From Bacteroidota bacterium (lineage in GTDB: Bacteria; Bacteroidota; Ignavibacteria; Kapaibacteriales; Kapaibacteriaceae), in contig JBEAYU010000042.1 in the NCBI GenBank assembly GCA_041170435.1, positions 55,692 to 119,691 on the forward strand: 64,000 nt of DNA. The letters run 5' to 3'. Shown here in pieces: positions 1,710 to 48,041 of this stretch (positions within the stretch are counted from its first letter, which is position 1; each line of letters begins with the position of its first letter). Both the position numbers and the translations under genes were made by a program. The notes beneath the pieces were generated by a model that saw only the letters and a list, made by a program, of their open reading frames with translations, did not search any database and was not told the origin of the DNA.

Positions 1710-1783
1710 TTCCCATGTTTGCTGTATGTGCATGATTTGTCAACGCTGTTCGTCAAAGCGGCCACATCCATGAGAACCACACA

Positions 1784-8422: not shown

Positions 8423-9022
8423 ATGAGCAAGGTACAGGTCGACATACTTGGTCTATCGGTCAACCCAAATTCGCAGCGAGCATATGCTTTGCTGTTGCGG
8501 GAGATCGGTGGCCAACGTCGTTTGCCGATCGTCATCGGAGAACCCGAAGCTCAGGCAATTGCCAATCAATTGGAAGGCGTCCACTCACAACGTCCGATGA
8601 CGCACGACCTTTTGAAGAACGTCATTGATGCTCTTGGTGCGCAGGTCCGTGAGGTCGTGATCACATCGATCAAGGATGGCACCTTCTACGCATCGATCTT
8701 CTTCGAGTACTCTGACCTCGAAGTCGATGCACGACCGAGTGACGCGATCGCTTTGGCCGTGCGGTGTCAGGTCCCGATCTACGTGGACGAGTCGATCATG
8801 GACGAAGCATCGATTCATGCTGATGAGATCCGCGAGCTCGAGGAAGGTAGTTCCGACGAAGAAGAACCCGCTGAACAGCTGCCGGCGGTTGCTCCGTCTG
8901 CAGAGCCCCTTACCTTGCGACAAAGGTTGGAACAAGAACTTGATCAGGCCATCAAGGTCGAGGACTATGAAGCTGCCGCTCGCATCCGGGATGAGATCAG
9001 TCGCTTGCAAAATCCAACATAG
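8423..9022 (+). CDS. Bifunctional nuclease family protein (DUF151-type) with C-terminal UVR motif
   Basis: Core motifs LLLREIGGQRRLPIVIGEPEAQAI, RPMTHDLL and RPSDAIALAVR, an acidic linker, then a UvrB/UvrC-type motif EDYEAAARIRDEISRL. Confidence 0.8.
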   Translation: MSKVQVDILGLSVNPNSQRAYALLLREIGGQRRLPIVIGEPEAQAIANQLEGVHSQRPMTHDLLKNVIDALGAQVREVVITSIKDGTFYASIFFEYSDLEVDARPSDAIALAVRCQVPIYVDESIMDEASIHADEIRELEEGSSDEEEPAEQLPAVAPSAEPLTLRQRLEQELDQAIKVEDYEAAARIRDEISRLQNPT

Positions 9023-9068
9023 GTTTTGAATCTGACGGACGTTCGTATCTTTGCATCCCCTCTTGAGG

Positions 9069-9142
9069 GCCGGAGTAGCTCAGGTGGTTAGAGCAACGGA
9101 ATCATAATCCGTGTGTCGGGGGTTCAAGTCCCTCCTCCGGTA
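9069..9142 (+). tRNA. tRNA with anticodon CAT (elongator Met, or Ile2 if C34 is lysidinylated); CCA not encoded
   Basis: Hand-folded cloverleaf. Acceptor stem GCCGGAG/CTCCGGT (one G-U pair), D arm GCTC-AGGTGGTTA-GAGC, anticodon arm ACGGA-ATCATAA-TCCGT, variable loop GTGTC, T arm GGGGG-TTCAAGT-CCCTC, discriminator A. Confidence 0.9.
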
Positions 9143-9150
9143 CTTTCAAC

Positions 9151-9181
9151 AGCGAAGCACATTGTGCTTCGCTGTTTTTGT
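9151..9181 (+). terminator. Rho-independent terminator after the tRNA
   Basis: Perfect inverted repeat AGCGAAGCAC / GTGCTTCGCT (9151-9160 / 9164-9173) followed by TTTTTGTTTG. Confidence 0.7.
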
Positions 9182-9397
9182 TTGTTCAGCCGTCAAGCCT
9201 TCTCGAAAGCCGCCAGAGCAGAAGGCGCGCCACACCCATTTTCTATTTTCTTCCCCGTTGCACCGACATGCGGTAACCTAACGTGATCGCACAAGTCTTG
9301 GTCTTAATTGCGGCGTAGTCGTAGCGTAGTTTCATTTGTTATTGGAGTTCGAATCCATGAGGATTATTCTCAAACTCGTTGATGTTCGAGGTAGAAA

Positions 9398-26302: not shown

Positions 26303-26339
26303 TGTTTCGTGTGAAAACCCGAAGGCCTCAGATCAACCG

Positions 26340-27731
26340 TTACCCTTTGGGCGTCGGGAATGCTTCGCGCATTGCAACGATGATCTTCTCTGCCACCTTG
26401 TCAGAAACAACGCGTTTGACGTTGTCATCGCTGGCGAGGGCCTCAGCTATGGCAAGTTCAACCTTCTTCTTAATGATCTCGGATGTCTCTCCCACCAGCG
26501 CGCTGGCCATCGAGTGCATATCCTCAGAAACATCCTTCATTGTCTCAAGCTGACTCTTGCTGGCATCTTCCATCTTCTTCATCAGCTTATCCATCCGCTC
26601 TTCACCTTCCGTGTAGACAAGACCGAATGCAAGAAGAGCAAGAAGCGCACCTTCGAGTGAGATAGCTGCAAGGATCAGTGATGGCTTTGTTGCAGGGATG
26701 AACTTTAGACCGCGGATACCGATGATCACGATGAGGATGGCAGCACCGAAATAGGCAAGCCCCGTGACGTTGTTAGAATACTTCTCGGTGAAGTGGTGGG
26801 CCATGTAAAGACGAAGTCCGCCAAAAAGCTTTGCACGGTTGCGAGACCACTCAATGCCAGCTGTTGTGTCGAGAATTTCCTTCACAACGAAGTCCGAGAA
26901 GAACTCGTTAATGCGGATGAAAATCGCTTCACGACGGAACTCGGAAAGCGCTACATCAGGCGTGAAAACATCATCGAATCGGATCAGTCGACGTCCGCGC
27001 GCCCTTGCGTCTTCTTCTGATTCCTGAGCTGTTCGATCCCAGATGATCTTGAAGGCAGCGCGCACATCCTTGTGCTCGAGCTGATCCAAATCGCGATCGG
27101 GCATCACAAGAAGTTCAACGATCTCGTCAGGGAAACCAGACTGGAGGCGGATCTTCGTCTTTGTGTGATGAATCTCACGATCTACTTTCTGAGCCATATA
27201 TCCAATGCTGCTCGGAAAAAAGAACGTAATGAAGATCGCAAATGTGAACCCAAAGGCCAATGACAGCACCGTGAAGCCGATCGGAGGTTCAATAATGATG
27301 GAGTTTTCCCCCAAACCACCCTCTTCCGTGGCGCGCAGTACCCATGTGCCGTGCTCCTTAAGGTAACCGTCCCGTTCTTCGCTACGATGAGCACCGGTCT
27401 CGAAGTCAAAGACATACTCTGCCTTGATCATCTTCTTGAGACCTTCGGCAGCGGCCTTGGTCTGACGCTCTGCCGGAGCCATTTCGGATGCCTCCTTCGT
27501 CATGAGTGCCTTGACACCCGGAATGACGAAATCGAACTTCTCCCCACTCTTTTCGCTCACTTCCGGCGCAAACAGATTGGACACGGCCATCTGCACGGCG
27601 GTCGGAATGAAGAAGAAATAAAACACCGCGGCAATTGCCGTGGTTATAGCCAAAAGCACTGCCGTGTGTTGAAACCCAGCTTTTGGAACTGCTGCATGTC
27701 CGCCTGCTGTCATCGCCACTCCTGTCGACAT
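26340..27731 (-). CDS. Multi-pass membrane protein of unknown function with C-terminal coiled-coil-like tail
   Basis: 463-aa ORF with coding-like composition and about 4 hydrophobic helices (e.g. AVLLAITTAIAAVFYFFFIP, FTVLSLAFGFTFAIFITFFF, GLAYFGAAILIVIIGI, LILAAISLEGALLALLAFGLV). No family was recognised. It ends 37 nt upstream of the C25 gene on the same strand. Confidence 0.5.
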   Translation of the reverse strand: MSTGVAMTAGGHAAVPKAGFQHTAVLLAITTAIAAVFYFFFIPTAVQMAVSNLFAPEVSEKSGEKFDFVIPGVKALMTKEASEMAPAERQTKAAAEGLKKMIKAEYVFDFETGAHRSEERDGYLKEHGTWVLRATEEGGLGENSIIIEPPIGFTVLSLAFGFTFAIFITFFFPSSIGYMAQKVDREIHHTKTKIRLQSGFPDEIVELLVMPDRDLDQLEHKDVRAAFKIIWDRTAQESEEDARARGRRLIRFDDVFTPDVALSEFRREAIFIRINEFFSDFVVKEILDTTAGIEWSRNRAKLFGGLRLYMAHHFTEKYSNNVTGLAYFGAAILIVIIGIRGLKFIPATKPSLILAAISLEGALLALLAFGLVYTEGEERMDKLMKKMEDASKSQLETMKDVSEDMHSMASALVGETSEIIKKKVELAIAEALASDDNVKRVVSDKVAEKIIVAMREAFPTPKG

Positions 27732-27860
27732 TGATGTGAACGCAAAAAACTCCCCCTAGCGGAAAGCCGTGACCAATATACGAAATGGGCACCCTCATCA
27801 TAACGACGGATTGTGAAGAATCATGTACTGGTCCGGCTGGTCTCCGTATTTTCGCGCATT

Positions 27861-29198
27861 ATGTCTACCTACAAACCCCTTTTCGACGTTACGCCAGAAC
27901 AGGTCATTCCGACCCTGCGGGACTACATCCTTGTTGACGGCTTCGATCACGTGATCGACCTCGATCATAGCCACGGTGCCTGGATGGTAGAGGCGCGGAC
28001 CAAGCGCGCATATCTGGACTTTTTCACATGCATTGCATCCATGCCGATCGGTATGAACCATCCGAAGATGACCGACCCGGCATTCGTGGAATACTTGGGT
28101 AAGGCCGCACTCAATAAGCCTTCTAATTCCGACATCTACACAGCGCACATGGCCACGTTCGTCAAGACGTTCTTCGAACTGGCCCTTCCGAAACATTTTC
28201 GATATGCCTTCTTCATCGACGGCGGTACCCTGGCCGTTGAGAATGCCATCAAAACGGCCATGGATTGGAAGGTGCGTCGAAACATGAGCAAGGGCTACAG
28301 CGGCGAACGTGGGCATCAGATCATTCACTTCCAGCGCGCATTCCATGGACGCTCAGGGTACTGCATGTCGCTGACGAACACGGATCCAACCAAGGTTGCG
28401 CTGTGGCCGCGGTGGGACTGGCCACGTATCGCTCCGCCGATGTTGTCATTTCCTGTCACCGACGCTGTACTGGAGGACGCACGTGCCCGCGAGGATGCTG
28501 CCGTTGAGGCCATAAAGAAGGCATTTGTAGATCATCCCGATGACATCGCCGCAATCATCATTGAGCCCATACAGGGTGAAGGGGGCGACAATCATTTCCG
28601 TCCGGAGTTTCTTGTTCGGCTGCGCCAGCTCTGCGATGAAAACGAAGCACTGCTGATCTTCGACGAGGTTCAGACGGGCGTCGGAATCACTGGACATTGG
28701 TGGGCCCATATGGGCCTGGGTGTTGAGCCAGATATCATGTCGTTTGGCAAGAAAATGCAGGTCTGCGGCATTGTCGTCGGTCCAAGAATCGACGACGTTC
28801 CCGACAATGTCTTTCACACGTCAAGCCGAATCAACTCCACGTGGGGAGGATCTCTGGTTGACATGGTACGAGCCACGAAGTACCTCGAAATCATCCACGA
28901 AGAAGGCCTCGTCGAGAATGCCGGCAGCGTTGGCGTATACCTACGCCAGCAACTCACAGAACTGCGTAATCGTGTTGGTCATGACGTCATGACGAACATC
29001 CGTGGCATGGGGCTGTTCTGCGCCTTTGATCTCCCGTCGAAAGAATTGCGAAACAGATTCCTGAAGAATGCCTATGACAACGGTTTGCTGCTGGTGGGCA
29101 GTGGCGACCGATCGGTGCGTTTTCGTCCGCCCCTAAACCTCACGCGAGAACTTGTCGATACTGGAATGGAGATCATTGGCACCTGCCTCCGTAGCTGA
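27861..29198 (+). CDS. lat: L-lysine 6-transaminase (class III aminotransferase)
   Basis: The N-terminal pattern (LRDYILVDGFDHVIDLDHSHGAWMVEARTKRAYLDFFTCIASMPIGMNHP...KPSNSDIYT) resembles Lat. The start was trimmed to MSTYKPL. Confidence 0.78.
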   Translation: MSTYKPLFDVTPEQVIPTLRDYILVDGFDHVIDLDHSHGAWMVEARTKRAYLDFFTCIASMPIGMNHPKMTDPAFVEYLGKAALNKPSNSDIYTAHMATFVKTFFELALPKHFRYAFFIDGGTLAVENAIKTAMDWKVRRNMSKGYSGERGHQIIHFQRAFHGRSGYCMSLTNTDPTKVALWPRWDWPRIAPPMLSFPVTDAVLEDARAREDAAVEAIKKAFVDHPDDIAAIIIEPIQGEGGDNHFRPEFLVRLRQLCDENEALLIFDEVQTGVGITGHWWAHMGLGVEPDIMSFGKKMQVCGIVVGPRIDDVPDNVFHTSSRINSTWGGSLVDMVRATKYLEIIHEEGLVENAGSVGVYLRQQLTELRNRVGHDVMTNIRGMGLFCAFDLPSKELRNRFLKNAYDNGLLLVGSGDRSVRFRPPLNLTRELVDTGMEIIGTCLRS

Positions 29199-36754: not shown

Positions 36755-37362
36755 TCCTGCCGTCGATCCGTCGATGGCATAAGAATGTTTCTAAATGTAA
36801 GATTCACACGCGGCCCCACGGGCCGCGTTTCTTTTTTAATGCCATGCAGCCAGTGATGCTGCGTTGGCCCACGCATGATCAAGATGCTGGAATCAGCCAG
36901 AGGAATCATCAATGACCTCAGGTCTTTCCGTGAACGGTGCTTCATGACAAAATGCCGTGGTGCGCCAAAGCTCATGGACGCGATGACCGGTTCCGGCCCA
37001 AGCTCGGGTTCGTCATCAGCGTGCATTCCCATACTGTCGGCGCCATCACGATAGTAGTTGGCCAACACACTGTTGAATGGCACTCCAGACAACTGCTGAG
37101 CAATGTGACGAAGTTCATCAAGCAAGGGGGTCCAGGCTAGCCCCCTTAGTGTCTTGCGTGAATACGTATAGTCGAAGCCTTCATCGGCATAAAAGGCGAT
37201 CAGTCGCGGCTGCATGATCGTGCGGCCAAACATCGTGATGGTCTCAGTGCGCCACTGAAGCGTTTCGATCAATGCGTCGAGATAGGAACCCTTCCAGAGC
37301 CCCAGATTGTGAGCGTCCAAAAGGTGTATATCAAGATCGGGCATTGTAGAATATGTCGACAT
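36721..37362 (-). CDS. alkB: Alpha-ketoglutarate/Fe(II)-dependent dioxygenase AlkB
   Basis: MGMHADDEPELG (HxD), HHWLHGI and RVNLTFR motifs. The start is uncertain (GTG 37380, ATG 37362 or ATG 37344). The 3' end overlaps the nuoE 3' end by 34 nt. Confidence 0.85.
   Translation of the reverse strand: MSTYSTMPDLDIHLLDAHNLGLWKGSYLDALIETLQWRTETITMFGRTIMQPRLIAFYADEGFDYTYSRKTLRGLAWTPLLDELRHIAQQLSGVPFNSVLANYYRDGADSMGMHADDEPELGPEPVIASMSFGAPRHFVMKHRSRKDLRSLMIPLADSSILIMRGPTQHHWLHGIKKETRPVGPRVNLTFRNILMPSTDRRQDQRRASSNASS
36808..36839 (+). terminator. Putative rho-independent terminator of nuoE, embedded in the convergent alkB coding sequence
   Basis: Stem ACGCGGCC / GGCCGCGT (36808-36815 / 36821-36828) followed by TTCTTTTTT. 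Confidence 0.55.
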
Positions 37363-37368
37363 TTTGTA
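37359..37368. promoter_or_regulatory. ACATTTTGTA motif in the alkB / lexA-like divergent control region
   Basis: This exact 10-mer is also present at 38209-38218, with a one-mismatch copy at 38189-38198, both upstream of the imuB-like gene. It lies 34 nt upstream of the lexA-like ATG. Confidence 0.35.
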
Positions 37369-37401
37369 AGTTATCCCCACTTTCGTACCAGGATTTCAAC
37401 C

Positions 37402-38169
37402 ATGAACACCCGCGCACAGCTCGGCATCCGCCACCGTCAGGTTCGAGAATCGATCCTGAAACTCAACGTTCAAGAATACGCCAAAATCATCGACGTGCGC
37501 GTGCCGACTGTGTACTCGTGGGAATCAGGTCGTACGGCCGTGCCGCAACACGTCCTGGCAATGCTAGAGTCGCGTTACGGCATCTCATCGGGCTGGTTGC
37601 TCACAGGCTCCGGGTCACCTATCGTGGAAGCACGACAAGAGTTGGCCACAGGGGGCGAGACGAAACGCACGATCATGCAACAACTGGAGGATCACGTGTC
37701 ACACATTCGAGAGCTGATCGAAGAACTCAAGCGCCACTCTCCGCAGGTCGTAGCCCCGGTGCGTCGAAAGAAATCCGACCGCGGCCCACGCATCCCTATG
37801 CTGGCCTTGGGCGTCAGTGCAGGTCTTCCAACGGCCTCTGATGACACGATCGAGCGCGAGATTGATCTGGCGGACATGCTGCTGGAGCACCCCGAGAGTA
37901 CCTACTTCATTCGTGTCGTTGGTGACTCAATGACCGATGCCGGAATCAGTGATGGCGACACGCTGATCGTGGACTGTGCACTGCAACCTCGCTCGGGTCA
38001 GATCGTCATCGCCAAGGTCTACGGTGAGCTCACCGTCAAGCGCTATCTGACGGTGGACGGCCAGCCGCTGCTGCGCGCCGAGAACCGGCGCTACAAGGAC
38101 ATTGCCATCACTGCCGACATGGACTTCAGCATCGTCGGCGTGGTTCGCAACTGCATCAAACAGCTGTAA
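37402..38169 (+). CDS. LexA-like repressor: XRE-type HTH + S24 (LexA/UmuD/CI) autopeptidase domain
   Basis: HTH segment (LNVQEYAKIIDVRVPTVYSWESGRTAVP), a candidate Ala-Gly cleavage site (LGVSAGLPT), the Ser nucleophile in VVGDSM and the Lys in ELTVKRY. The start was trimmed to MNTRAQLG. Confidence 0.8.
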   Translation: MNTRAQLGIRHRQVRESILKLNVQEYAKIIDVRVPTVYSWESGRTAVPQHVLAMLESRYGISSGWLLTGSGSPIVEARQELATGGETKRTIMQQLEDHVSHIRELIEELKRHSPQVVAPVRRKKSDRGPRIPMLALGVSAGLPTASDDTIEREIDLADMLLEHPESTYFIRVVGDSMTDAGISDGDTLIVDCALQPRSGQIVIAKVYGELTVKRYLTVDGQPLLRAENRRYKDIAITADMDFSIVGVVRNCIKQL

Positions 38170-38185
38170 GCCCCTTTTACCAAAC

Positions 38186-38222
38186 TTGACATTTTGCATT
38201 GCGATTGTACATTTTGTATAAT
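38186..38222 (+). promoter_or_regulatory. Candidate promoter/operator of the imuB-like-dnaE2 operon
   Basis: TTGACA (38186-38191), a 16-nt spacer, then TACATT (38208-38213). Two copies of ACATTTTG(C/T)A lie exactly 20 nt apart (38189-38198, 38209-38218). There is an imperfect palindrome TTGTACA-TTT-TGTATAA (38205-38221). An alternative reading is a Bacteroidota-style TTG-N19-TAnnTTTG-like element. Confidence 0.4.
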
Positions 38223-38227
38223 CGCAT

Positions 38228-39199
38228 ATGCTTCTCTGCCTGCTCTGCTCGGATGCCTCTGATGCAACGATCGATGCTCTGCTCGACTCGGTGCATGGAT
38301 GCACTCCTTTACTGTCGACACCCGCCAGGGGGCGTATCTACTGTGGACTCGACGATCTGCAGGGCCTGCACGCCGTCGTGCGCAGGTTTAACTGTCGGGC
38401 GGCCATGGCTCCCCTGCGCAACGACGCTCTGCTACGAGCGTGCGCTGCAGAGACAACGGGCCGCATTGACGTATTCGAAAATGCCGATAACGTGCCGAGC
38501 CGCGTACTGACGATGCTGCCGGAGCTGGGCATCAGCCACGACGATACAGAACGGCTACGCCTGTTTGGACTTGATACGATCGGCCGGCTTCGCACTCTTG
38601 AAGAGCGACACCTGCGTCTGCAATTCGGAGCGCGCGCCGGGATGCTGTATCAACTGCTGCATGATGCACGTGATGCCTCTCTGCCGCTCTATGCTCCGCC
38701 ACCACAGATCGTGGCGATCGAGCGATTTGACGAAGATGCTCGAGAGCCCGGCTTGATCCTCGATGCGGCCCAACGTTGCAGTCAGGTGGCAGCAATCAAG
38801 CTGGACGGACGTGAGGCCTGGCGCATCGAGGTCAGCGTGCTTGATGCGAACGATACCATCACAGATGCTCGTTCCAGAATTCTGCGGCAAGGGGCAAGGC
38901 TGGCGAGCATCATCTGGACGCATGTGCAAACGCTGTGCAGGATGTTGTTGAGGCCCAACCGGCGCTGGCGTGGCGTTAGCCTGCGTCTTGCGTCTCTGCG
39001 TCAGGCCGAAGCTGAACAGATCGACCTCTTCGCTCCCCGAGTCAGCCCTTCGCAGCTACAGCAGCTCTTGCGACCGCGCTATGGTCACGTCTTGAAGCAG
39101 GTGCAGATCCTGGATCCGTGGACGCTCATGCCTGATCGACATGCCAGGATCGTACCGATCAGCGCACCGACCCCACATGATCAGGGGGCTGATCAATGA
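38228..39199 (+). CDS. imuB: ImuB-like inactive Y-family polymerase homologue (short, 323 aa) with beta-clamp-binding motif
   Basis: It sits directly upstream of dnaE2. Little-finger-like region LFGLDTIGRLRTL...LRLQFG. Clamp-binding pentapeptide QIDLF at 39017-39031. No N-terminal catalytic acidic motif was recognised. Confidence 0.6.
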   Translation: MLLCLLCSDASDATIDALLDSVHGCTPLLSTPARGRIYCGLDDLQGLHAVVRRFNCRAAMAPLRNDALLRACAAETTGRIDVFENADNVPSRVLTMLPELGISHDDTERLRLFGLDTIGRLRTLEERHLRLQFGARAGMLYQLLHDARDASLPLYAPPPQIVAIERFDEDAREPGLILDAAQRCSQVAAIKLDGREAWRIEVSVLDANDTITDARSRILRQGARLASIIWTHVQTLCRMLLRPNRRWRGVSLRLASLRQAEAEQIDLFAPRVSPSQLQQLLRPRYGHVLKQVQILDPWTLMPDRHARIVPISAPTPHDQGADQ

Positions 39200-39432
39200 A
39201 ATTTCTTCTTGAGCCCATCGATGTCGGATTGCGCAACGGACAACCTGAAATCATCTGCTGGAGAGGGGGCGCCTACGATGTCGAGCAAGTGCTCGACCGT
39301 TGGTCAGCTCGAGGTCCATGGTGGGGTGATGACGAGCAGCGGCGATATCTGCTGCTGATCACCACAAGCGGTGTGATGGAGATCTTTCACAGCAGCCTTC
39401 AAGGCTGGATGCTTTCGCGCATCTTTGACTGA
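39196..39432 (+). CDS. 78-aa protein coupled between imuB-like and dnaE2; resembles the extreme C-terminal module of full-length ImuB proteins
   Basis: ATGA overlap with the imuB-like stop, and its end overlaps the dnaE2 start region. Contains the W-rich segment RWSARGPWWGDDEQRRYLLLITTSGVMEIFHS...GWMLSRIFD. Confidence 0.45.
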   Translation: MKFLLEPIDVGLRNGQPEIICWRGGAYDVEQVLDRWSARGPWWGDDEQRRYLLLITTSGVMEIFHSSLQGWMLSRIFD

Positions 39433-42400
39433 GCGTACAATGTTCGGATCACTGCATACGCGCTCTCACTTTTCGTTTCTCGACGGCGGCTCAAGCGTCG
39501 AGGCGCTGGTCGATGTGGCTCATGAATTGGGACATGATGCTCTTGCCATCACCGATGTCCACGGCGTCTATGCGGCCGTCCGACATCAACGCGCATGCCG
39601 CAGACGTGGCATCAGGCCGCTGATCGGCATCGATGTTCCGATCATGGTACAGGAATCGACCTACGTCGATGTCAGCGTCATTGCCCGCAACGATGAGGGA
39701 TATCGTGCGATCTGCCGTCTCAGCACTCGGTTGCATGAGAGTAAGGGGCTAGCCATGCCGGAGCTTTGGCAACTCGAGGCCCTTGGCCTGACTGAGCTTC
39801 AGAACTGTTTCGTGATCCTACACATGCTGAGCGGTCCAAGCCAGCATGTGACGGCCGTGCTAGACGAGCTACAACAGCGCGGCATGGATCATCTGTATGC
39901 CGGCCTTGCTCATGATGGACGCCCTTGGGCAGTGCGCAGAATTCATGCAATGGCCGCACTGGCAGGTGAGCGCTCCGTGCCGCTGGTTGCAGCACAAGAT
40001 GTGCGTTATGCTCGGCGTGATGACTATGCGGCGCACGATCTGATGGTCTGCATTCGTGAGGGCATGACCATCCATGATCCCCATCCTTTGCGGCCCGTGC
40101 ACGACCGTCAGTGTCTGCGCCGTGAGGCGGACCTACAGAAGCTTATCCCCTATCCGGAGGCCTTTGGGAACGTCGGCAGGATCATCCACGAGTGCAGATT
40201 CGACCTGCTTCCGGAGCATATCACGCCCCCTGCCGCACGCATCCCCGATGGCCAGACATCCCGTCAGGTGCTTCGTCAGATGTGCCTCGATATGTTTGAT
40301 GACCGTTATGGCAGTGTCTCGGACGAGACACGCCGCAGAGCTTCAGAGCTTCTTGAGCATGAGCTCACCGTGATAGCCGACCTTGATCTGTCAGACTTCT
40401 TCCTGGTCGTTCACGAAGTCGTCGAACACGCCCGCAGGCGAGGCATCCGCACGAGTGGAAGGGGCTCGGCGGCCAACTCCGTGGTGGCCTACGTGCTCGG
40501 CATCACGGGCGTTTGTCCTGTGGAGCATCATCTGCTGTTCGAGAGATTTCTGCATCGTGGACGCAAGGGCACGCCCGACATAGACGTGGACTTCGACAGT
40601 GAGCGCCGAGGCGAAGTGCTGGCCTGGATGGAAGAGCGTTTTGGCCTTGAACAGACGGCTATGACGGCAACGATCATCACCTACCGCATTCGCATGGCGA
40701 TCCGCGACGCTGCCAAGGCCTTGGGTTGGCCGGAGGAGACCGTTCGTGCACTGTCGAAGTCGGTACCCGGCTACACGAACAACTGCGTAGAGACCTACCG
40801 CAAAGAGCTTGCCGGCGTCATCGGCCGGATACCCATGCTCGATATTCTGATCAAGGCTGCAACGCTATTGCTTGATCAACCACGCCATCTTGGACAACAT
40901 TCCGGTGGCATGGTACTGTCGAGCAAGCCCCTTGAAAACTTCACTCCGGTGCAGCGATCTGCCAACGGTGTGGCCGTCGTGCAGTTCGACAAGGACGATG
41001 TTGAGGCCCTTGGACTGGTCAAGTTCGACGTGCTCGGTCTGCGAATGCTGGCATGCATCAGCGAGTGCCTCGAACTGATCGAACGTCACACCGGATCGGC
41101 GCCGGACATCGACCGGTTGCCTCTGGATGATGTCAAGACGTTTGAGACCATTCGCAGCGGTCGCACGCTGGGTGTGTTCCAGATCGAATCACAGGGTCAG
41201 ATGCATCTGCTGGCCAAGCATCAGCCGGAAAACTTCGCCGATCTGATCACAGAGGTGGCTCTGTTCCGTCCGGGTCCGCTGCAAGGGGGCATGGTGCACC
41301 CCTACATCAAACGACGGCGCGGACAGGAACCGATCAGCTATCCACATCCCGACCTCGAGCCGATCCTGTCGGATACCTTAGGAATCGTGCTGTTCCAGGA
41401 ACAGGTGCTCGAGATCGCCCATCGATTCGCCGGCATGTCGCTTGAAGACGCCGATGATTTCCGCTCTTTGGTGTCGAAAAATCGGAATCGTGAACTGATG
41501 GCCTCAATGCGCGATCGTTTCGTTCAGGGGGCTTGCAGCCGCGGTGTCGATATGGCCAGTGCAGAAGAGGTCTACGAGATCGTCTCGCACTTCGTCGGAT
41601 ACGGCTTCTGCCGCTCTCATGCCGCTGCGTTTGCCAAGATCGTCTATCAGAGCGCATCGCTCAAAACGCACCACACGGCCGCCTACATGGCAGCATTCAT
41701 GCAGCATCGGCCGGGGATGTACAACCTCATGACCTTGCACGAGGAGTGCCGCCGCTGGGGTGTTCAGGTGCTAGCATGTGACGTGTCGCGTTCAGGACTT
41801 CGCTATGACATCGAGCAGGATGCAAGTGGACGGTTTGCCATTCGTAGCCCACTTACGGCCATCCGAAACGTCAGTGCCGAAGCGGCACGGTCGATCATCT
41901 GGCAGCGTGCACTCGCCCCCTTCCAGAGCGTAGAAGACCTCGTCACTCGTCTGCCCGATGTGCCGCGCGATACTCTTGAATGCATCGCCATGGCAGGGGC
42001 CATGCAAGGTCTGGAGCCCGATGCACGCCGTGCCGCTTGGATCGTTGGCGTGGTCCGTCAGCGGATGGCTCGCCAAGATGCGCATAGGCCACAGCTGTTT
42101 GAATTGCCGAATCTGCACCCGAATGATGTGCCGGCATTGCCACCGCTCAGAGCGCAAGAGCGTCTGGCCTACGACTACATCATGCAGGGGGCTGCCCGGG
42201 TCCACCCCATGACGCTGTACCGACGCTCGATGATGTCACTTGAAATTCGTACGGTCGAGACGATCTGTCGGCTACCACCTCAGAGCAAACTCCAGGTGAC
42301 CGTTGCCGGCATCGTGATCCTCAGGCAGGCACCGCCGACGGCAAAAGGCATGCTGTTTATCACCCTTGAAGATGAGACTGGCTTTCTGCAGTGCGCCGTA

Positions 42401-42646
42401 CCCCCGGCCGTGCGGGAACACTTCCGGCAACAGTTGCGCTCATCGGCACTATTGCTGCGTGGAACGCTTCACGGCATTGGCTCGTGGAGAAGCATCATGG
42501 TCTCGGACGTGCGCGTGCTCACAAGCGTCATCGGTGGCTATCACGGACATCTGTCGTATGCCGGAGGGCAGGACACGCTGGAAGTGGGGCAGGATCCCGG
42601 GTTGACCGTCATCCCGAAGGGGGCGCCCCATGAACTCGTCCGTTGA
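39425..42646 (+). CDS. dnaE2: Error-prone DNA polymerase III alpha-like subunit DnaE2
   Basis: PHP domain start (LHTRSHFSFLDGGS), the polymerase core (GRGSAANSVVAYVLGIT, PDIDVDF, FDVLGL) and an OB fold at the C-terminus. The 1073-aa size is typical of DnaE2. An alternative start is ATG 39440. Confidence 0.92.
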   Translation: MTERTMFGSLHTRSHFSFLDGGSSVEALVDVAHELGHDALAITDVHGVYAAVRHQRACRRRGIRPLIGIDVPIMVQESTYVDVSVIARNDEGYRAICRLSTRLHESKGLAMPELWQLEALGLTELQNCFVILHMLSGPSQHVTAVLDELQQRGMDHLYAGLAHDGRPWAVRRIHAMAALAGERSVPLVAAQDVRYARRDDYAAHDLMVCIREGMTIHDPHPLRPVHDRQCLRREADLQKLIPYPEAFGNVGRIIHECRFDLLPEHITPPAARIPDGQTSRQVLRQMCLDMFDDRYGSVSDETRRRASELLEHELTVIADLDLSDFFLVVHEVVEHARRRGIRTSGRGSAANSVVAYVLGITGVCPVEHHLLFERFLHRGRKGTPDIDVDFDSERRGEVLAWMEERFGLEQTAMTATIITYRIRMAIRDAAKALGWPEETVRALSKSVPGYTNNCVETYRKELAGVIGRIPMLDILIKAATLLLDQPRHLGQHSGGMVLSSKPLENFTPVQRSANGVAVVQFDKDDVEALGLVKFDVLGLRMLACISECLELIERHTGSAPDIDRLPLDDVKTFETIRSGRTLGVFQIESQGQMHLLAKHQPENFADLITEVALFRPGPLQGGMVHPYIKRRRGQEPISYPHPDLEPILSDTLGIVLFQEQVLEIAHRFAGMSLEDADDFRSLVSKNRNRELMASMRDRFVQGACSRGVDMASAEEVYEIVSHFVGYGFCRSHAAAFAKIVYQSASLKTHHTAAYMAAFMQHRPGMYNLMTLHEECRRWGVQVLACDVSRSGLRYDIEQDASGRFAIRSPLTAIRNVSAEAARSIIWQRALAPFQSVEDLVTRLPDVPRDTLECIAMAGAMQGLEPDARRAAWIVGVVRQRMARQDAHRPQLFELPNLHPNDVPALPPLRAQERLAYDYIMQGAARVHPMTLYRRSMMSLEIRTVETICRLPPQSKLQVTVAGIVILRQAPPTAKGMLFITLEDETGFLQCAVPPAVREHFRQQLRSSALLLRGTLHGIGSWRSIMVSDVRVLTSVIGGYHGHLSYAGGQDTLEVGQDPGLTVIPKGAPHELVR

Positions 42647-42777
42647 TCGCCAAAGCGGCGCCTCCGGCCGATCGCGGATCCGATAACAACCTTGATTCCG
42701 GCTGATGGAATCGCTCTGAGATACATCCAGACCGAGCTATAACACCAATGGTATCATGCGGCAGGGCTTAGTCTTTA

Positions 42778-44141
42778 CTAGAACGAATAGCTGGTAAACA
42801 AATGTGCCCCGTACATCAAGAAAGACGCACGTCCAACAGAAAACAAATATCTCACTAATTGAAATGGCACATTGTGTGTAACAGACGCAATAGAGTCATA
42901 CAGACCAAGTTGATACATTCCGAATCCGCGCATGCCCACGAAAAAAGATCTTGATAGCGCAATGCTCGCACTTACGTTCAAAGACGCATCAAACGTCACA
43001 CCTGGGCCGAAGCTTGTAAAGTTCCTTTCTGCAAGAAAGGTGCGTGCCCGGTAGTGCACGTACGAGGAGCCAAGTGCAATCGTGGTCGACAATCCAATTC
43101 GATTGTAGCCAATGCTATCGATAGGGACAAGATGCCATGTACCCAAGATCAGCAGGGTAAAAGAATCAGAGCCGATCGAGTTTTGCTGAGACGAGTCATT
43201 TATCGTCGGTGGCTGAGCTTGAACCAACAGCCTAGCCCCAATATCGAAGGGCTGACTATGAAGCGTGACAGCTCTATGCCGGTGGAATACGTCACAGGCT
43301 GGTAACTCAAATCAATGTCCGTGATCAAGCCTCGCGACGATTGAACGGCAGAAGCACTCGACCTCGTAATAGATGCCATAGCACCGCCAAAGACTGTAAG
43401 AGTCCAGACATTCGATCTCGGACAGACACTGGAACGCGGCGCACCATCATTGCTATCGTCTAGAAGAACCGAGATACACGATTCAATCTCAGGTGGTACA
43501 TACCACATGTATACTCTGGCTTCGCTCACGATCCGGATTGCAGTCCGAAACTTCGGGATCTCTCCATCTATGAACATCCAACCTGGTGGCTCGCCCTCAA
43601 TCACACGCGAGACATTGACAATCTGAGCCACCGGAATACAAACGAAAGCGCGTGCCTGCAGATCCGTCTGAGGAACAAATGTGGAATCGCTCGATAAGAG
43701 CAAACTTTCGTCCGAAACAGCCAGCGGAACCCCTGTTCTTACAGAACCGTCAGTAAGCCGAACTGATATCAGCGGAACAGGCTGACGATAGATCTGCGTC
43801 GGAGAAACACGGTCAAGAATCTTTCGTAACTGCTTGTCGCCGACAAACATATCATTCTCACCGTCGAGCAACTGCTCGTAGTCCCGGATGTAACGATTTA
43901 AGATGGGAACTTCATCGGGAGAAAACTTGACTGTGTAAACGACTGTGTCATCACGCATACCAACCAGCGAGACCCCTACATCATTGATCACCAACACAGA
44001 GTCAACGTCAACCCGATTGCGCGGAATGCCGAAGTACCTCCTCTCGTTGATAGAGAGACTCGTACCGACACGAGCAAGCTGAGCTACCACACATGGAGCT
44101 GATACACTTAAGAGTGCGATCACCATAAGCAAGTGAATCAT
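42778..44141 (-). pseudogene. Frameshifted paralogue of the 456-aa secreted/barrel protein (ORFs 43200..44141 and 42778..43227)
   Basis: The 313-aa ORF aligns to residues 1-~300 of the 45053..46423 product, and the 149-aa ORF aligns to its C-terminal ~150 aa. Adding one G to the GGG run at 43249-43251 (plus strand) gives the continuous reading IVSPFDIGARLLVQAQPP, which parallels YVSELHDIGLRAMLVVQPP. Confidence 0.6.
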
Positions 44142-44860
44142 GGACTAACCGAGACGATCTGTTCAAATGGTCCTACGATCTGAGTTAGCTCGATGCCGTC
44201 ACTGAATAGGTATGGACCGTATTCAACCCTAACACGTTGTACTTGAACTCCGATTTTCGCCTCTCCATCAATCGCCCCAGCCAAGTCAGACGGCTTGAAC
44301 GTCAGCTGTGTCGTACCGACACCCTTGAACGTCCGCTTGGCAACTGCGATGGGCGGTCCAGACAGATTGTAGATAATGACTTCAATGGTCTCAAATTCTC
44401 TTATCGGAGGGGACACCTCAATGTTGAGACCGGTCGTTCGGGAAGCTTGACCTGACATTTTGAAACTGCTCAATAGATCAAGCGGGACGTCAACTCCAGT
44501 GGTAAGCCCTTCTGGACTGACATACTCGATAGAGATAACGGGCATGAGACCCCCAACGCTTAGTTCACCATTGCCATACGGGAAGCCTTTCTCCAAATCC
44601 CACCTCACGCTATTGACAACTAATGTAGCATTGAGAATCGATTCGAGCTTGAGCCCACTACGCCCCTTTCGCGCACTCATCAAAACCTGATAGCCGGAGC
44701 GTTTGTAATCAGGTGACGCTTGGATCGCAAGAAACGCCCTCCGCAGAGTATCACGGCGCTTATCCTGCATCACCGAGGGATCGGTGAGCCCGACGTAGTG
44801 ACTACATGAGACAACACATAGCATGAATGCGGTAACGCAACAGCCATACACTTTTGCCAT
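44138..44860 (-). CDS. Putative lipoprotein, unknown family (module copy 1)
   Basis: Signal peptide ending in a lipobox-like VVSC. It is paralogous to 46420..47154 (shared CSHY.G.TDPSV and LFSDGIELTQ). The stop overlaps the downstream start (ATGA 44138-44141). Confidence 0.6.
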   Translation of the reverse strand: MAKVYGCCVTAFMLCVVSCSHYVGLTDPSVMQDKRRDTLRRAFLAIQASPDYKRSGYQVLMSARKGRSGLKLESILNATLVVNSVRWDLEKGFPYGNGELSVGGLMPVISIEYVSPEGLTTGVDVPLDLLSSFKMSGQASRTTGLNIEVSPPIREFETIEVIIYNLSGPPIAVAKRTFKGVGTTQLTFKPSDLAGAIDGEAKIGVQVQRVRVEYGPYLFSDGIELTQIVGPFEQIVSVSP

Positions 44861-45052
44861 AAACTTCTCAATCTGCTAATTAATGGTCGCTTAAAAAGAC
44901 AAAGAATGAGATCGACATTCGAACTTGATGTTCTTGGGTCAGATCCACCCCATTTCTAATGAAGCGACGAGCCTCGCAATTCCGTTCCTGCTCTCCTGCC
45001 CAAGATAGCGAGGTGCCGTGGAACTACTCCGCGAAAACAGACTCTTGCTAGC

Positions 45053-46423
45053 TCAGTCGATAGTATAAGTCAGATAGAGCTGTGCTCCAGCAAATACCGT
45101 AAACTGTCGAGGAATCGAAAAAAATGCTTCCCAAGGCTTTGCATATGGCATTTCGTCTACAATGCTCTCAACATAATGACCAAGCCCATGCTGATACATC
45201 GAACATCCCCGCAAGCCAATAATGAAGGATGTTGAAATCGGCACCTGCAAGCTTAGGCTCAAAGCAACATCAAGTGCAAGACCACTGCCAGACGTGGTCA
45301 GGTTCCTGGCATCACGATAGGTGCGGCCTCTGTATGAGAGAAATGACGGCCCAACACCAAGGGTTGCAGATAGGCCGACAGAGTTATATCCGATGATGTC
45401 AGATGGTACAATATGCCACGTGCCAAGTACGTGCACCGAGTAAGCATCCATTCCAAGGGAGTTTTGTGCCGCAGAATCATGCACAGTTGGAGGCTGGACC
45501 ACAAGCATTGCACGCAGCCCAATGTCATGGAGTTCGCTCACATACATCGACGCCTCGATACCAGACGAAAACGATAACTGCTGAAAGTTTAGTGCAACAG
45601 TTCGAAATCTACTTACAGATGGCAACTCAACAACAGCTTCTGGTCGTAACATCGTAGAAATGACCCCACTAAACGCGGTCACATATGGACTAGTAGAGCG
45701 CGGACATACTTTTGATGATTGGGCATACACAAGTTGCTCACTATTGGCGGCAGTAATGCAATCCTCGAACTCGGGTGGAAAGTTCTGCTCGTATGACAAC
45801 GTCATGTTGGCAAGTCGCGCAGCCGTTTGAAACAAGGTGTAATCACCTCGCACCACGAACCACCTCGGAGATGCCTTGCCAACATCGGGAGTTAGGTTCT
45901 CGATGAGCGTGACAGGAATACATGTAAACCTCCCTTGCTGCAGATCAACAACAGGATCAAACGACTCGCCTTCTGTGATAAGCAAGTTATCGTTTGTTGC
46001 AACCAGAGGAATGCCCGTTTTGACAGAACCGGTTGATAGTCGGACAGAGATTTTTCTGACATTCATTTCCAGGAACTGGCGAGGCGCGACTCGACCTAGA
46101 ATCCTTCGCATGGTGGTATCACTGATGAAGAGATCTGTTTGACTGGCCAAGAGTGTTTCGTAATCACGCAGGTATCGTTCAAGGGTCGGCACTTCATCAG
46201 GTAAGAAAACGACAGAATCCACTATGGAGTCTCGACGCATTCCCAGGAATGTCACCCCTACCCTTCTGTCGACCTTCATTGAATCATAACTACCCTTCCG
46301 ACGCCCAATTCCGAAATACATCCTCGTGTTATCCGAAATCGTTCCGCCCAATCGTGGCAACTGGGCTACGACGGTCACAGCTGATATCAGAGTCATGACG
46401 AGAATCAGGAGCAATCTATTCAT
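45053..46423 (-). CDS. Secreted protein, unknown N-terminal domain + C-terminal beta-barrel-like domain (module copy 2, intact)
   Basis: Signal peptide MNRLLLILVMTLISAVTVVAQ. The last ~190 aa show alternating hydrophobic/polar strand-like segments (YVTAFSGVIST, AYSVHVLGTWHIV, GLALDVALSLSLQV, FTVFAGAQLYLTY). Confidence 0.6.
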   Translation of the reverse strand: MNRLLLILVMTLISAVTVVAQLPRLGGTISDNTRMYFGIGRRKGSYDSMKVDRRVGVTFLGMRRDSIVDSVVFLPDEVPTLERYLRDYETLLASQTDLFISDTTMRRILGRVAPRQFLEMNVRKISVRLSTGSVKTGIPLVATNDNLLITEGESFDPVVDLQQGRFTCIPVTLIENLTPDVGKASPRWFVVRGDYTLFQTAARLANMTLSYEQNFPPEFEDCITAANSEQLVYAQSSKVCPRSTSPYVTAFSGVISTMLRPEAVVELPSVSRFRTVALNFQQLSFSSGIEASMYVSELHDIGLRAMLVVQPPTVHDSAAQNSLGMDAYSVHVLGTWHIVPSDIIGYNSVGLSATLGVGPSFLSYRGRTYRDARNLTTSGSGLALDVALSLSLQVPISTSFIIGLRGCSMYQHGLGHYVESIVDEMPYAKPWEAFFSIPRQFTVFAGAQLYLTYTID

Positions 46424-47154
46424 GGCGTAACTGCCACATACTGATATAGACTTCCCTGGCTCTGGGTTAACTCAATGCCATCGCTGAATAGAACGTTATG
46501 AAATGCTACACTCTTTCGATCCAACCCAACAGAGATTTCCTTATCACTTTGGATCTGGTCAACAAACTCCGCGGCAGCGACATTAAGAGTTGACAATCCA
46601 GCACCCTGAAATACGCGTGACGCTAAGCGCTTAAACGTACCGACCGATTTATACACACTCACTTCGATGATCTCCCCCTGATTCAGTGCTGGCGAAATCG
46701 TGACCACAAGTCCGGATGTCTTCGAAGCGACGAAGGTACGCGTGTACAACTGACGTGGCGCAAGGTCGAACCGGGTTCTCTTAAGTGATTCACCTGGGCC
46801 TTGGAATCCAATCTCAAGTATTGTCGTGCCGACCGGTAAGGAAATCTGGTCAGACGGGCCTCGAAATGGAAATCCGTAGGTTAAGCCTCGCTTGACGCCG
46901 TTGACATACAGATAGGATCTACGAAGTGATTCGATTTCGGGTCCATTACGGCCGTGACGCGCTACCATCGTCACTGAATGTTGTTCTGATGGATACAGCA
47001 ACTCTGTGCGTATTGCAAGGAACACAGACCTGTTTGTATCTGTGTCTGTTCCCTCATCATCTGCAACTGATGGGTCTGTTTCGCCTATGTAATGGCTACA
47101 TGACAAGCACAACAACAGCAAGGCGATTGTTACAAACGGAAACAAGTGTTTCAT
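46420..47154 (-). CDS. Putative lipoprotein, unknown family (module copy 2)
   Basis: Signal peptide ending in a lipobox-like CLSC, followed by an acidic linker (ADDEGTDTDTN). The stop overlaps the downstream start (ATGA 46420-46423). Confidence 0.6.
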   Translation of the reverse strand: MKHLFPFVTIALLLLCLSCSHYIGETDPSVADDEGTDTDTNRSVFLAIRTELLYPSEQHSVTMVARHGRNGPEIESLRRSYLYVNGVKRGLTYGFPFRGPSDQISLPVGTTILEIGFQGPGESLKRTRFDLAPRQLYTRTFVASKTSGLVVTISPALNQGEIIEVSVYKSVGTFKRLASRVFQGAGLSTLNVAAAEFVDQIQSDKEISVGLDRKSVAFHNVLFSDGIELTQSQGSLYQYVAVTP

Positions 47155-47276
47155 ACATCATTAGTACGAGAATAAAACAAGCTTCTCAGTGCAAAAGTAC
47201 AACAGGCAGATGATAAGAAGTGTCACCCACTACTCATCCATCTCAATGAAACGCCCATTGATGATAGTTTTGCCTG

Positions 47277-48041
47277 ATGTCACGGCTGCGCATGCTCATC
47301 GAGTACGACGGAACCGACTACGTTGGCTGGCAACGCCAGAGCAATGGCGTTTCCGTGCAGCAGCGCGTGGAAGAAGCCCTCTCAATAGCGTATGGCGTTC
47401 CATGCATCATTCATGGGGCTGGCAGAACCGACGCTGGGGTGCATGCCAGCGGACAGTGCGCACATGTCGAACTTCCGGCCGGAGCTCATCAGATACCGAT
47501 CGAGAAGGCGGTTGTGGCCATCAACACTCGCCTGCCAAAGGATGTTCGCATCCTGAGCGTTCAACGAGTTCACGATGGCTTTCATGCAAGGTTCGATGCG
47601 ATCTGGCGTGAGTACGTCTACTCGATCGCCATCGAACCGAGTGTGTTCAACCGGCTGACGTCATGGCATCCGGATCTTCCGTACGACCGTGAGCTCTTCG
47701 AAGAAGCTCTCTGCCATATGCGTGGACGACACAACTTCACGGCGTTCTCAAAGTCCAATCCCGATACCACAAGCTATGTCTGCGACCTGCAGATCTGCCA
47801 GACTCGGATCAACGGCGGGATATTGGAAGTCCGACTACGGGCTGACCGGTTTGTGTATGGTATGTGCAGAGCCATCATTGGAGCATCCATGTCCGTTGCA
47901 CGTCAACGGCTTAGCATCGAAGAGTTGATCGCGCTGCGAGACTCGGCCGAACGGCGCATACCACCCTCTCTTGCACCAGCACATGGCCTCTGCCTGGTAG
48001 GCGTTGGCTACGAACGAGACCCGGCTAGAGCCATTACTTAA
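47277..48041 (+). CDS. truA: tRNA pseudouridine(38-40) synthase TruA
   Basis: MLIEYDGTDYVGWQRQ and the catalytic-Asp context GAGRTDAGVHA. Confidence 0.93.
   Translation: MSRLRMLIEYDGTDYVGWQRQSNGVSVQQRVEEALSIAYGVPCIIHGAGRTDAGVHASGQCAHVELPAGAHQIPIEKAVVAINTRLPKDVRILSVQRVHDGFHARFDAIWREYVYSIAIEPSVFNRLTSWHPDLPYDRELFEEALCHMRGRHNFTAFSKSNPDTTSYVCDLQICQTRINGGILEVRLRADRFVYGMCRAIIGASMSVARQRLSIEELIALRDSAERRIPPSLAPAHGLCLVGVGYERDPARAIT

Follow-up and report, generated by a model that had tools for sequence, protein, structure and literature searches.

The stretch of DNA analysed here (the window, 64,000 nt, to which all coordinates refer) comes from a Bacteroidota bacterium of the Kapaibacteriaceae (contig JBEAYU010000042.1). 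Between dnaE2 (39425-42646, plus strand) and truA (47277-48041, plus strand) it carries a minus-strand segment with five open reading frames (ORFs), which make up two diverged tandem copies (42778-47154, minus strand) of a unit consisting of a lipoprotein gene and a gene for a large secreted protein. We refer to the two copies as cassette types A and B, to related loci or contigs as L001-L022 and to related proteins as P0024-P0034. Both the placement between dnaE2 and truA and the tandem two-gene arrangement had been proposed in a preliminary description of this DNA, and the ORF coordinates and protein alignments bear them out. The features of the locus are the following.

47155-47276, no strand assigned: divergent intergenic region between truA and lipoA, 122 nt, the presumed promoter region of cassette A
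46420-47154, minus strand: lipoA, the cassette type A lipoprotein, 244 amino acids (aa), defined by its ORF, the family alignment and an AlphaFold2 (AF2) model; its parts are a signal peptide with lipobox (LCLSC, Cys19), an acidic disordered tether (about residues 20-36) and two predicted beta-sandwich domains resembling immunoglobulin (Ig) or fibronectin type III (FN3) domains
47089-47097 (lipoA) and 44798-44806 (lipoB), minus strand: codons Cys19-His21, the C-[SGNER]-H motif
46420-46423, minus strand: ATGA overlap of the lipoA stop with the large gene A start (...CCATGAAT...), indicating translational coupling
45053-46423, minus strand: large gene A, intact, coding for a predicted outer-membrane protein of 456 aa (ORF, 11 homologues, AF2 model); its parts are a signal peptidase I (SPI) signal peptide (VVA before and QLPR after the cleavage site), a putative new N-terminal domain (about residues 21-246) and a predicted C-terminal small beta-barrel (about residues 247-454)
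44861-45052, minus strand: spacer between cassettes A and B, 192 nt, presumably holding the promoter and ribosome-binding site (RBS) of cassette B
44138-44860, minus strand: lipoB, the cassette type B lipoprotein, intact, 240 aa
44138-44141, minus strand: ATGA overlap of the lipoB stop with the large gene B start (...CCATGATT...)
42778-44141, minus strand: large gene B, a probable pseudogene for the outer-membrane protein of type B, now two ORFs of 313 and 149 aa
43249-43251, minus strand: frameshift site, a C3 run in GTCAGCCCTTCGAT, located by three-frame translation against type A and the L004 type B gene

Two diverged gene pairs and a broken barrel gene

The two lipoproteins are 34% identical (E 4e-41), and protein A matches the 313-aa and 149-aa ORFs with 40% and 41% identity (E 3e-73 and 5e-42), the two ORFs together spanning the whole of protein A. 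Both lipoprotein/large-gene junctions read CCATGA, with the ATG overlapping the TGA, at exactly the positions reported earlier, and every one of the conserved motifs listed at that time was recovered (CSHY[VI]G.TDPSV, LFSDGIELTQ, VVAQL, PDEVP.L.RY.RDYE.LL, ISVRL..GSV.TG.PL and F.CIPV). No further paralogue of the module lies within the 64-kb window. The lack of an integrase, a transposase and flanking direct repeats was confirmed for the window segment, where no att-like repeat or border tRNA was seen either, and the products of its ORFs gave no PHROG or plasmid-like signals. A scan for sigma-70-type promoters and terminators, which was uninformative in that it yielded fewer sites than shuffled controls, called none in the 44861-45052 spacer. 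Phase variation by an invertible promoter was considered and rejected, as no flanking inverted repeats were found.

The second gene had been described as coding for about 455 aa in both copies, which is true of copy A and not of copy B, where a 1-nt deletion in a C-run splits the gene into a 313-aa ORF at 43200-44141 and a 149-aa ORF at 42778-43227. Upstream of the break the frame reads ...YSTGIELSRFIVS, and the -1 frame goes on FDIGARLLVQAQPPTINDSSQQNSIG, in agreement with the family consensus. We infer from the sequence that the ancestral run at 43249-43251 was C4; when one C is inserted, a stop-free ORF of 454 aa ending ...TSYSF results, and the type B orthologue in L004 is an intact, single ORF of 459 aa. 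The identical 313-aa product and the same lesion occur on a Joint Genome Institute (JGI) contig (L017, 100% identity to the window over 6942 nt), so the break is not a one-off assembly error and, the lesion being reproducible, large gene B is best read from these alignments as a recent pseudogene. Programmed -1 frameshifting at this site was rejected: there is no slippery heptamer, and the L004 orthologue is a single ORF. The earlier proposal of an old duplication with both units maintained is therefore correct as to age, since types A and B are orthologous in L004 and L010, and fails as to maintenance, since the type B barrel gene is frameshifted here.

A predicted small barrel behind a putative new N-terminal domain

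Scans of all five ORF products against Pfam, NCBIfam, PADLOC and PHROGs gave nothing significant, including in Pfam and NCBIfam any match to models such as PF13505, PF01389 or PF06316. In Pfam, 18 relatives of the large protein likewise matched nothing at threshold, and PDB sequence-profile searches with alignments of both families returned only noise, in keeping with the original impression that neither family is a recognised one.

Protein A begins with a Sec signal peptide whose n-, h- and c-regions are visible by inspection (MNRLLLILVMTLISAVTVVA followed by QLPR), and of the 11 family members whose N-terminus is complete, 10 have A or S followed by Q at the cleavage site. Gln at +1 after the signal peptide is the Q-rule of Bacteroidetes, and the Q-value for Ignavibacterium album is 77% (PMC5837995). 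The protein A signal peptide, ending in A with Q at +1, fits this rule.

The AF2 model of protein A, built from 11 homologues, has a mean pLDDT of 69. Residues 247-454 are all beta and are modelled with a pLDDT of 85-95, and the N-terminal ~225 aa are mixed alpha/beta with a pLDDT of 30-70. Foldseek searches against the PDB with this model returned outer-membrane barrels only, with a probability of 1.0 for OpcA, NspA, the OmpA transmembrane domain, Ail and Pla: OpcA (E 3e-6), NspA (target-normalised TM-score, TMt, 0.64), the OmpA transmembrane (TM) domain (TMt 0.58-0.69), a Legionella porin (0.63) and Ail. Pla/OmpT reached a TMt of 0.33-0.36 and the ten-stranded barrels overall 0.33-0.39; the best target-normalised scores (0.58-0.69) belong to 8-stranded barrels. 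A small outer-membrane barrel had been suggested for the last ~190 aa, and the model and the Foldseek matches support it over a somewhat longer stretch: the C-terminal ~210 aa most likely form an OmpA/NspA-like barrel of eight strands. From the DSSP string and hydrophobic alternation we read these membrane strands at residues 247-259, 283-294, 299-309, 322-339, 350-370, 373-395, 400-418 and 431-454; they are amphipathic with alternating hydrophobicity and, by the DSSP-based reading, are joined by three short turns and long protruding hairpins. The C-termini of the family read [ST][YF]x[LFI] with zero to two extra residues. The distant members and the repaired type B product end in F or L, and the type A protein of the window has ...TYTID at its end, without a canonical terminal aromatic. 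Sub-threshold matches to PF13505 (OMP_b-brl) occur in 2 of the 18 relatives, both of them distant (20.3 and 16.7 bits against a cutoff of 28.7).

As modelled, the N-terminal ~225 aa appear to be a new domain, and because both ends of the barrel would be periplasmic, this domain would be periplasmic as well. Much of it (about residues 20-178: LPRxG...YFG...DS..., a long helix and a beta unit of short strands) is also found in the distant relatives P0024, P0029 and P0034, in which Gly-rich hydrophobic segments follow the domain, ahead of the barrel or replacing it; on these alignments the N-terminal domain seems to be an independent module. Predicted loops 1 and 4 and residues 180-246 are the most variable parts of the protein, and predicted loops 2 and 3 are the most conserved segments of the barrel. 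A test for concentration of variation in the loops was negative, the substitutions being evenly distributed, and loop-focused diversifying selection is not claimed.

The partner lipoprotein

The AF2 model of lipoprotein A (pLDDT 83, pTM 0.72) places a low-confidence acidic tether of ~17 aa (residues 20-36) ahead of two beta-sandwich domains, for which Foldseek found only generic matches to tandem Ig/FN3 or macroglobulin (MG)-like domains (PECAM-1, cytokine receptors, alpha-2-macroglobulin domains). Pfam scans of 10 of the lipoproteins gave nothing. That these proteins carry lipoprotein signal peptides, as first described, is supported by the lipobox Cys, which every one of the 13 homologues retains behind a hydrophobic h-region. 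The window family has S or A at position -1, the distant pairs L013 and L022 have G there, and the two window copies have a Cys at -3 or -4, a slight departure from the strict PROSITE pattern.

The mature lipoproteins have SHYIG or SHYVG at positions +2 to +6, replaced by EHAVP or RHDIT in the distant ones. Lipoproteins of Bacteroidota are exported to the surface by means of an acidic cluster at +3 to +6 (C-X-K-(D/E)2, SDDDD, SDDFE; PMC5080379), and no such signal is present at +2 to +6 here. The surface-exposed complex put forward in the preliminary description is therefore not indicated as far as the lipoprotein is concerned: by this rule it faces the periplasm, and we consider it to lie probably on the periplasmic face of the outer membrane, the rule having been derived from Bacteroidia and Flavobacteriia and possibly not holding in Ignavibacteria/Kapaibacteria. 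The His at +3 occurs without exception in the 13 lipoproteins, even in those of only ~15-20% identity (CSH, CGH, CNH, CEH and CRH), and all of the lipoprotein homologues end in V-x-V-x-P or a similar sequence just ahead of the overlapping stop.

Distribution and pairing

A word-indexed search of 5.8 billion proteins turned up 11 relatives of protein A and, for the lipoprotein, 3-8; among 1.84 billion representatives, an exhaustive profile search found 21 clusters at E <= 1e-3. Loci were confirmed in 5 of 185,579 species genomes and in 4 of 241 million metagenome records. The named sources are all Kapaibacterium/Kapabacteria, Ignavibacteria or unclassified Bacteroidota metagenome-assembled genomes, and literature searches for the family found no description of it.

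In most of the relatives examined the lipoprotein gene lies directly upstream of the large gene, usually with a 4-nt overlap. The overlap is kept in L013 and probably in L022, both at ~20-25% identity; in L016 the two genes are 4 nt apart, and the exception examined is the very distant P0030, which has no upstream lipoprotein gene. L013 is a tandem array (lipoprotein-barrel-lipoprotein-barrel) with an overlap at each junction, and the contig of P0026 alternates genes of 465, 266, 486 and 217 aa. In Ignavibacteria (L001, L011 and L022) the pair is single-copy and has recO and genes for a CNNM/CorC protein and an alpha/beta-hydrolase as syntenic neighbours, with ~20-25% identity left between the large proteins of L001 and L022; this single-copy synteny argues for vertical inheritance with fast divergence. 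The distances among lipoproteins track those of the barrel domain (partial r 0.65) over those of the N-terminal domain (0.26), an exploratory comparison of non-independent points that we do not use as evidence. In L014 the pair (1511-5080) lies in a defence-island-like setting, where genes for a BrxC/BrxD-like ATPase and a DEAD/ResIII helicase immediately precede it, and a DUF3817 gene follows the pair in both L014 and L001.

Cassette exchange between truA and dnaE2

In the Kapaibacteriaceae loci, the slot between truA and dnaE2 is occupied by different combinations of type A, type B and a third type, C.

A and B: the window, L004 and L010 (type B intact in L004, 459 aa)
A only: L008
A, an IS3 remnant and an erythromycin-esterase-like gene: L009
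A, an IS3 transposase and C: L019, followed there by the esterase-like gene, and L018, the same as far as its contig extends
C only: L005, L006 and L007

The three types are 40-46% identical to one another, the same distance as separates them from the Ignavibacteria versions. Type A occupies this slot in at least three other lineages, with 69-75% identity to the window copy, and the flanking genes are about 76-81% identical. Compared with the window, type A is 70% and type B 54% identical and the flanking proteins 78-80%; lipoB and its type B counterpart in L004 share 53% identity.

The clearest case of exchange is the comparison of L004 with L005. Judged by their flanks the two are the same species, with 99.0% identity over 9359 nt of the upstream flank, a synonymous divergence (dS) of 0.038 in truA and 94.6% identity in the dnaE2 flank. 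The cassettes of L004 (two pairs) and that of L005 (one pair) nevertheless have no blastn match to each other. The ~99% identical flank spans the truA/lipoprotein intergenic region, which thereby anchors the exchange on its upstream side in these sister genomes, and extends 69 nt into the lipoprotein gene, ending in a sharp boundary where the CSHYV codons end. On the other side, the boundary falls within the final ~50-200 nt of dnaE2, a stretch with a local rise in divergence. A 99-nt direct repeat in L019 (93% identity; 6261-6359 and 9539-9637) stands ahead of the type A and type C lipoprotein genes and spans the RBS, signal peptide, lipobox and CSHYV. It offers a ready substrate by which cassettes could be deleted or duplicated, and recombination between repeats of this kind would convert the L019 layout into that of L005.

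Between L004 and L009, the dS of the cassette is 0.055-0.061 against 0.28 for truA, and the ratio of nonsynonymous to synonymous divergence (dN/dS) is about 0.5 against 0.10. Because its dS is below that of the flank, the cassette is younger than the flank, and under weaker or diversifying constraint. On these sequence comparisons the truA-dnaE2 slot is a recombination hot spot for homologous cassettes, the replacement being seen in a sister species rather than among strains of the window species.

The erythromycin-esterase-like gene codes for a lipoprotein of 482 aa and lies between the cassettes and dnaE2 in L009 and L019, adjoined by IS3 transposase genes or remnants. It is bracketed by direct repeats of 74-79 nt (96-99% identity) of the dnaE2 3' end (L009 6364-6437 and 8158-8231; L019 11747-11825 and 13541-13619).

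Base composition and neighbouring genes

The segment has a G+C content (GC) of 0.490 against 0.559 +/- 0.012 in the other 4.4-kb windows (z = -5.7), and it is the top tetranucleotide outlier of the 64-kb window (z = +7.4), making it the strongest compositional anomaly there. In 400-nt windows, GC is about 45-52% in the segment and 56-61% in the flanks; the dip noted at first sight is thus real, and the values then given for it (42-47% against 63-65%) were overstated. GC at third codon positions (GC3) is 0.47-0.52 in the segment against 0.60-0.68 in the flanking genes and that at second positions (GC2) is unchanged, so the effect is at the codon level and not at that of the amino acids. In relatives, Kapaibacteria-type loci fall short by 6-10 GC points and several Ignavibacteria loci by 3-6, and the deficit is absent in L012 and in L022 (66% GC), which led us to reject low GC as a universal property of the family. 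The low GC could be due to an exchange pool with a GC near 0.49-0.50 or to relaxed codon selection. The "low-GC island" of the preliminary description is a compositional outlier as claimed; it is a conserved slot whose homologous cassettes are exchanged, lost or joined, and not a mobile element that arrived recently. Milder GC dips (0.52) are present at two other places, 9000-11000 and 26000-28000, one of them adjoining tRNA-Met (9069-9143), the only tRNA gene of the window.

On its dnaE2 side the segment adjoins a cassette of SOS-mutagenesis type (37309-42646), made up of a LexA-like helix-turn-helix/peptidase S24 gene (37309-38169), a 323-aa ImuB-like ORF without a Pfam match (38228-39199), a short gap and dnaE2. 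The gap is filled in L006 by a gene for a 78-aa DUF6504 protein, and the same SOS-type order is found in L006 and L007.

Discussion

We favour, with moderate confidence, the view that the segment holds two paralogous copies of a lineage-specific two-gene outer-membrane module, placed in an exchangeable slot and coding for the partners of one complex. The first gene would specify an outer-membrane lipoprotein with a flexible ~17-aa tether and two Ig/FN3-like sandwiches, and the second, translationally coupled to the first through the ATGA overlap, a protein exported by the Sec/SPI route in which a new N-terminal domain of ~225 aa precedes a small OmpA/NspA-like barrel. From this coupling and the co-occurrence of the two genes we infer that the products are made at about 1:1 and form a single outer-membrane complex, in which the barrel would be the anchor and the sole surface-exposed part and the lipoprotein would sit with the N-terminal domain on the periplasmic face. 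Homologous recombination would swap, delete or stack whole A, B and C cassettes at a fixed Kapaibacteriaceae slot, with two anchors: the beginning of the lipoprotein gene, conserved over its RBS, signal peptide, lipobox and CSHYV, and the 3' end of dnaE2. The strain of the window would then have an intact cassette A and a cassette B that recently lost its barrel gene to a 1-nt deletion. Turnover at the strain level might be expected of a fast-evolving envelope complex whose exposed barrel hairpins are targeted by phages or predators; that the hairpins are under such pressure is a guess.

Several observations weigh against parts of this account. The count of eight strands and the topology of the barrel come from the DSSP string and hydrophobic periodicity and not from coordinates, and the N-terminal domain is modelled with low confidence (pLDDT 30-70). 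The missing export signal was judged by the rules of Bacteroidia and Flavobacteriia, and the host lineage is a different one. Amino-acid variation is not focused on the predicted extracellular loops, which makes the argument from phage or predator selection weak, and a dN/dS of 0.2-0.5 also fits relaxed constraint. The GC deficit is uneven, at 6-10 points in Kapaibacteria loci and none in L012 and L022. Finally, the recO-linked single-copy pair resembles a vertically inherited envelope component more than an accessory surface antigen.

A recent foreign genomic island from a lower-GC donor, unrelated to the envelope biology of the host and with the duplication as cargo, would explain the strongest GC and tetranucleotide deviation in the window, the GC3 at 13-18 points below the flanks and a cassette GC of about 0.49-0.50, which resembles that of Ignavibacteria genomes. 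The dS of the cassette below that of its flank (L004 against L009) and the IS3 elements and unrelated esterase gene that share the slot in L009 and L019 point the same way. However, type A recurs at this slot, at 69-75% identity, in three or more other lineages, type B is also orthologously shared, and the module is a single syntenic copy beside recO in Ignavibacteria. The window segment further differs from a classical integrative island or prophage in having no integrase, transposase, att repeats or tRNA target, nor PHROG or plasmid-like signals, although sister loci do have IS3 copies in this slot, along with a duplicate of the dnaE2 3' end. The evidence supports exchange inside the lineage and does not support a recent foreign origin, and we regard the island as unlikely. 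A close parallel to the preferred account of an exchangeable slot is offered by replacement flexible genomic islands, in which different, functionally equivalent genes are exchanged at the same slot by homologous recombination (Lopez-Perez, Martin-Cuadrado and Rodriguez-Valera 2014, PMC4033161). Both involve recombination in conserved flanks, raised divergence at a boundary and envelope proteins. The present slot differs in its size (2-6 kb, with one to two modules), in exchanging homologous paralogues and not unrelated gene sets, and in having one crossover inside coding sequence, directly after the lipobox. Islands of that type code for exposed surface structures targeted by phages; for the cassettes described here the outer-membrane location is predicted, and the variation is not loop-focused.

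The remaining alternatives concern what the pair does. RcsF with OmpA/OmpC and LptE in LptD are lipoprotein-barrel assemblies, and in a threaded or co-assembled complex of this kind the acidic tether would run through or along the barrel, the lipoprotein acting as a sensor or plug. The 17-aa low-confidence acidic tether right after the lipidated Cys and the C-x-H invariant in 13 of 13 homologues are compatible with this arrangement, but an 8-stranded barrel normally has no open lumen and ~200 aa of folded Ig-like domains are much too bulky for a plug; we hold such a complex to be improbable. The lipoprotein-plugged barrel suggested earlier is unlikely given the ~8-strand barrel, and the receptor role put forward alongside it is not supported either. 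An exporter of the Slam or type 11 secretion system (T11SS) kind, its barrel flipping the adjacent lipoprotein to the surface as a variable receptor or adhesin, would share with the present pair an adjacent, translationally coupled gene arrangement, a periplasmic N-terminal domain ahead of a C-terminal barrel (~450-480 aa in total) and a strain-variable locus like that of Slam cargo (PMC5449769, PMC8406197). Against this, none of the 18 family members matches DUF560/PF04575 or a tetratricopeptide repeat (TPR) even at E <= 5, the N-terminal domain is mixed alpha/beta and not TPR, and the barrel is closest to 8-stranded folds, whereas T11SS barrels have 14 strands (PMC8406197). The cargo fold differs too, the lipoprotein being a tandem beta-sandwich with no TbpB-like C-terminal beta-barrel domain and no Bacteroidota export signal, and those systems are proteobacterial, the present ones being from Ignavibacteria/Kapaibacteria; an exporter of this kind seems to us very improbable. 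Myxococcus TraA/TraB is a polymorphic kin-recognition pair with an outer-membrane barrel partner, and A, B and C could likewise be alleles for homotypic recognition or adhesion between cells. Discrete, deeply diverged types at one locus within a species, an Ig-like lipoprotein whose top Foldseek match is the homophilic Ig dimer PECAM-1 (E 1e-4, a generic fold match) and an operon partner with an outer-membrane barrel would fit the analogy. There is, however, no homology to TraA or TraB, the lipoprotein has no surface-export signal and several types co-occur in one genome (A with B, A with C), so that kin recognition has hardly any probability in our judgement.

Among known proteins, the barrel most resembles the small 8-stranded barrels (OmpA TM domain, NspA, OmpX/Ail; Pfam clan MBB, PF13505), with which it shares a predicted closed antiparallel structure (TM 0.58-0.69), amphipathic strands and weak PF13505 matches in two distant relatives; its C-terminus may also resemble a beta-signal. 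It differs from them in that no Pfam model reaches threshold, a specific lipoprotein gene is paired with it in most relatives and conservation within it peaks in two of the hairpins predicted to be extracellular. In OmpA, moreover, the barrel is N-terminal and followed by a C-terminal peptidoglycan-binding domain, whereas here the barrel is C-terminal, behind the new ~225-aa domain. The pairs SusCD and BtuBG also combine an outer-membrane barrel with an adjacent partner lipoprotein in the same broad phylum (BtuBG: PMC10404256). However, those are 22-strand TonB-dependent transporters with lipoproteins that carry an export signal, and the pair described here has a ~210-aa barrel and SHY[VI]G without an acidic cluster; Pfam scans found no PF00593, PF07715 or SusD matches in the family proteins.

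In summary, the pair is a previously undescribed one whose predicted folds are known and stand in a new arrangement. It adds two partnered protein families, matched by nothing in the curated libraries and PDB sequences tested, to a poorly studied branch of Bacteroidota, and it shows an unusual domain order for a small outer-membrane barrel, with the new N-terminal domain first and the barrel after it. The slot provides a compact example of cassette replacement in which the coding sequence of the signal peptide and lipobox is itself one recombination anchor. A bolder proposal, which we consider quite unlikely, is that of a new Ignavibacteria/Kapaibacteria outer-membrane machine, its barrel and periplasmic domain holding or threading the two-Ig lipoprotein by the invariant C-x-H tether and its interchangeable A, B and C alleles, stacked in arrays, setting a strain-specific surface identity (for example phage or predator receptor specificity, or kin recognition). 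The immediate impact of the finding is limited, as the module is narrowly distributed and has no cultured host. If the complex is truly surface exposed, it would be a marker of strain-level envelope diversity in uncultured bacteria and a candidate phage receptor; if it is truly periplasmic, it would represent a new envelope-tethering module.

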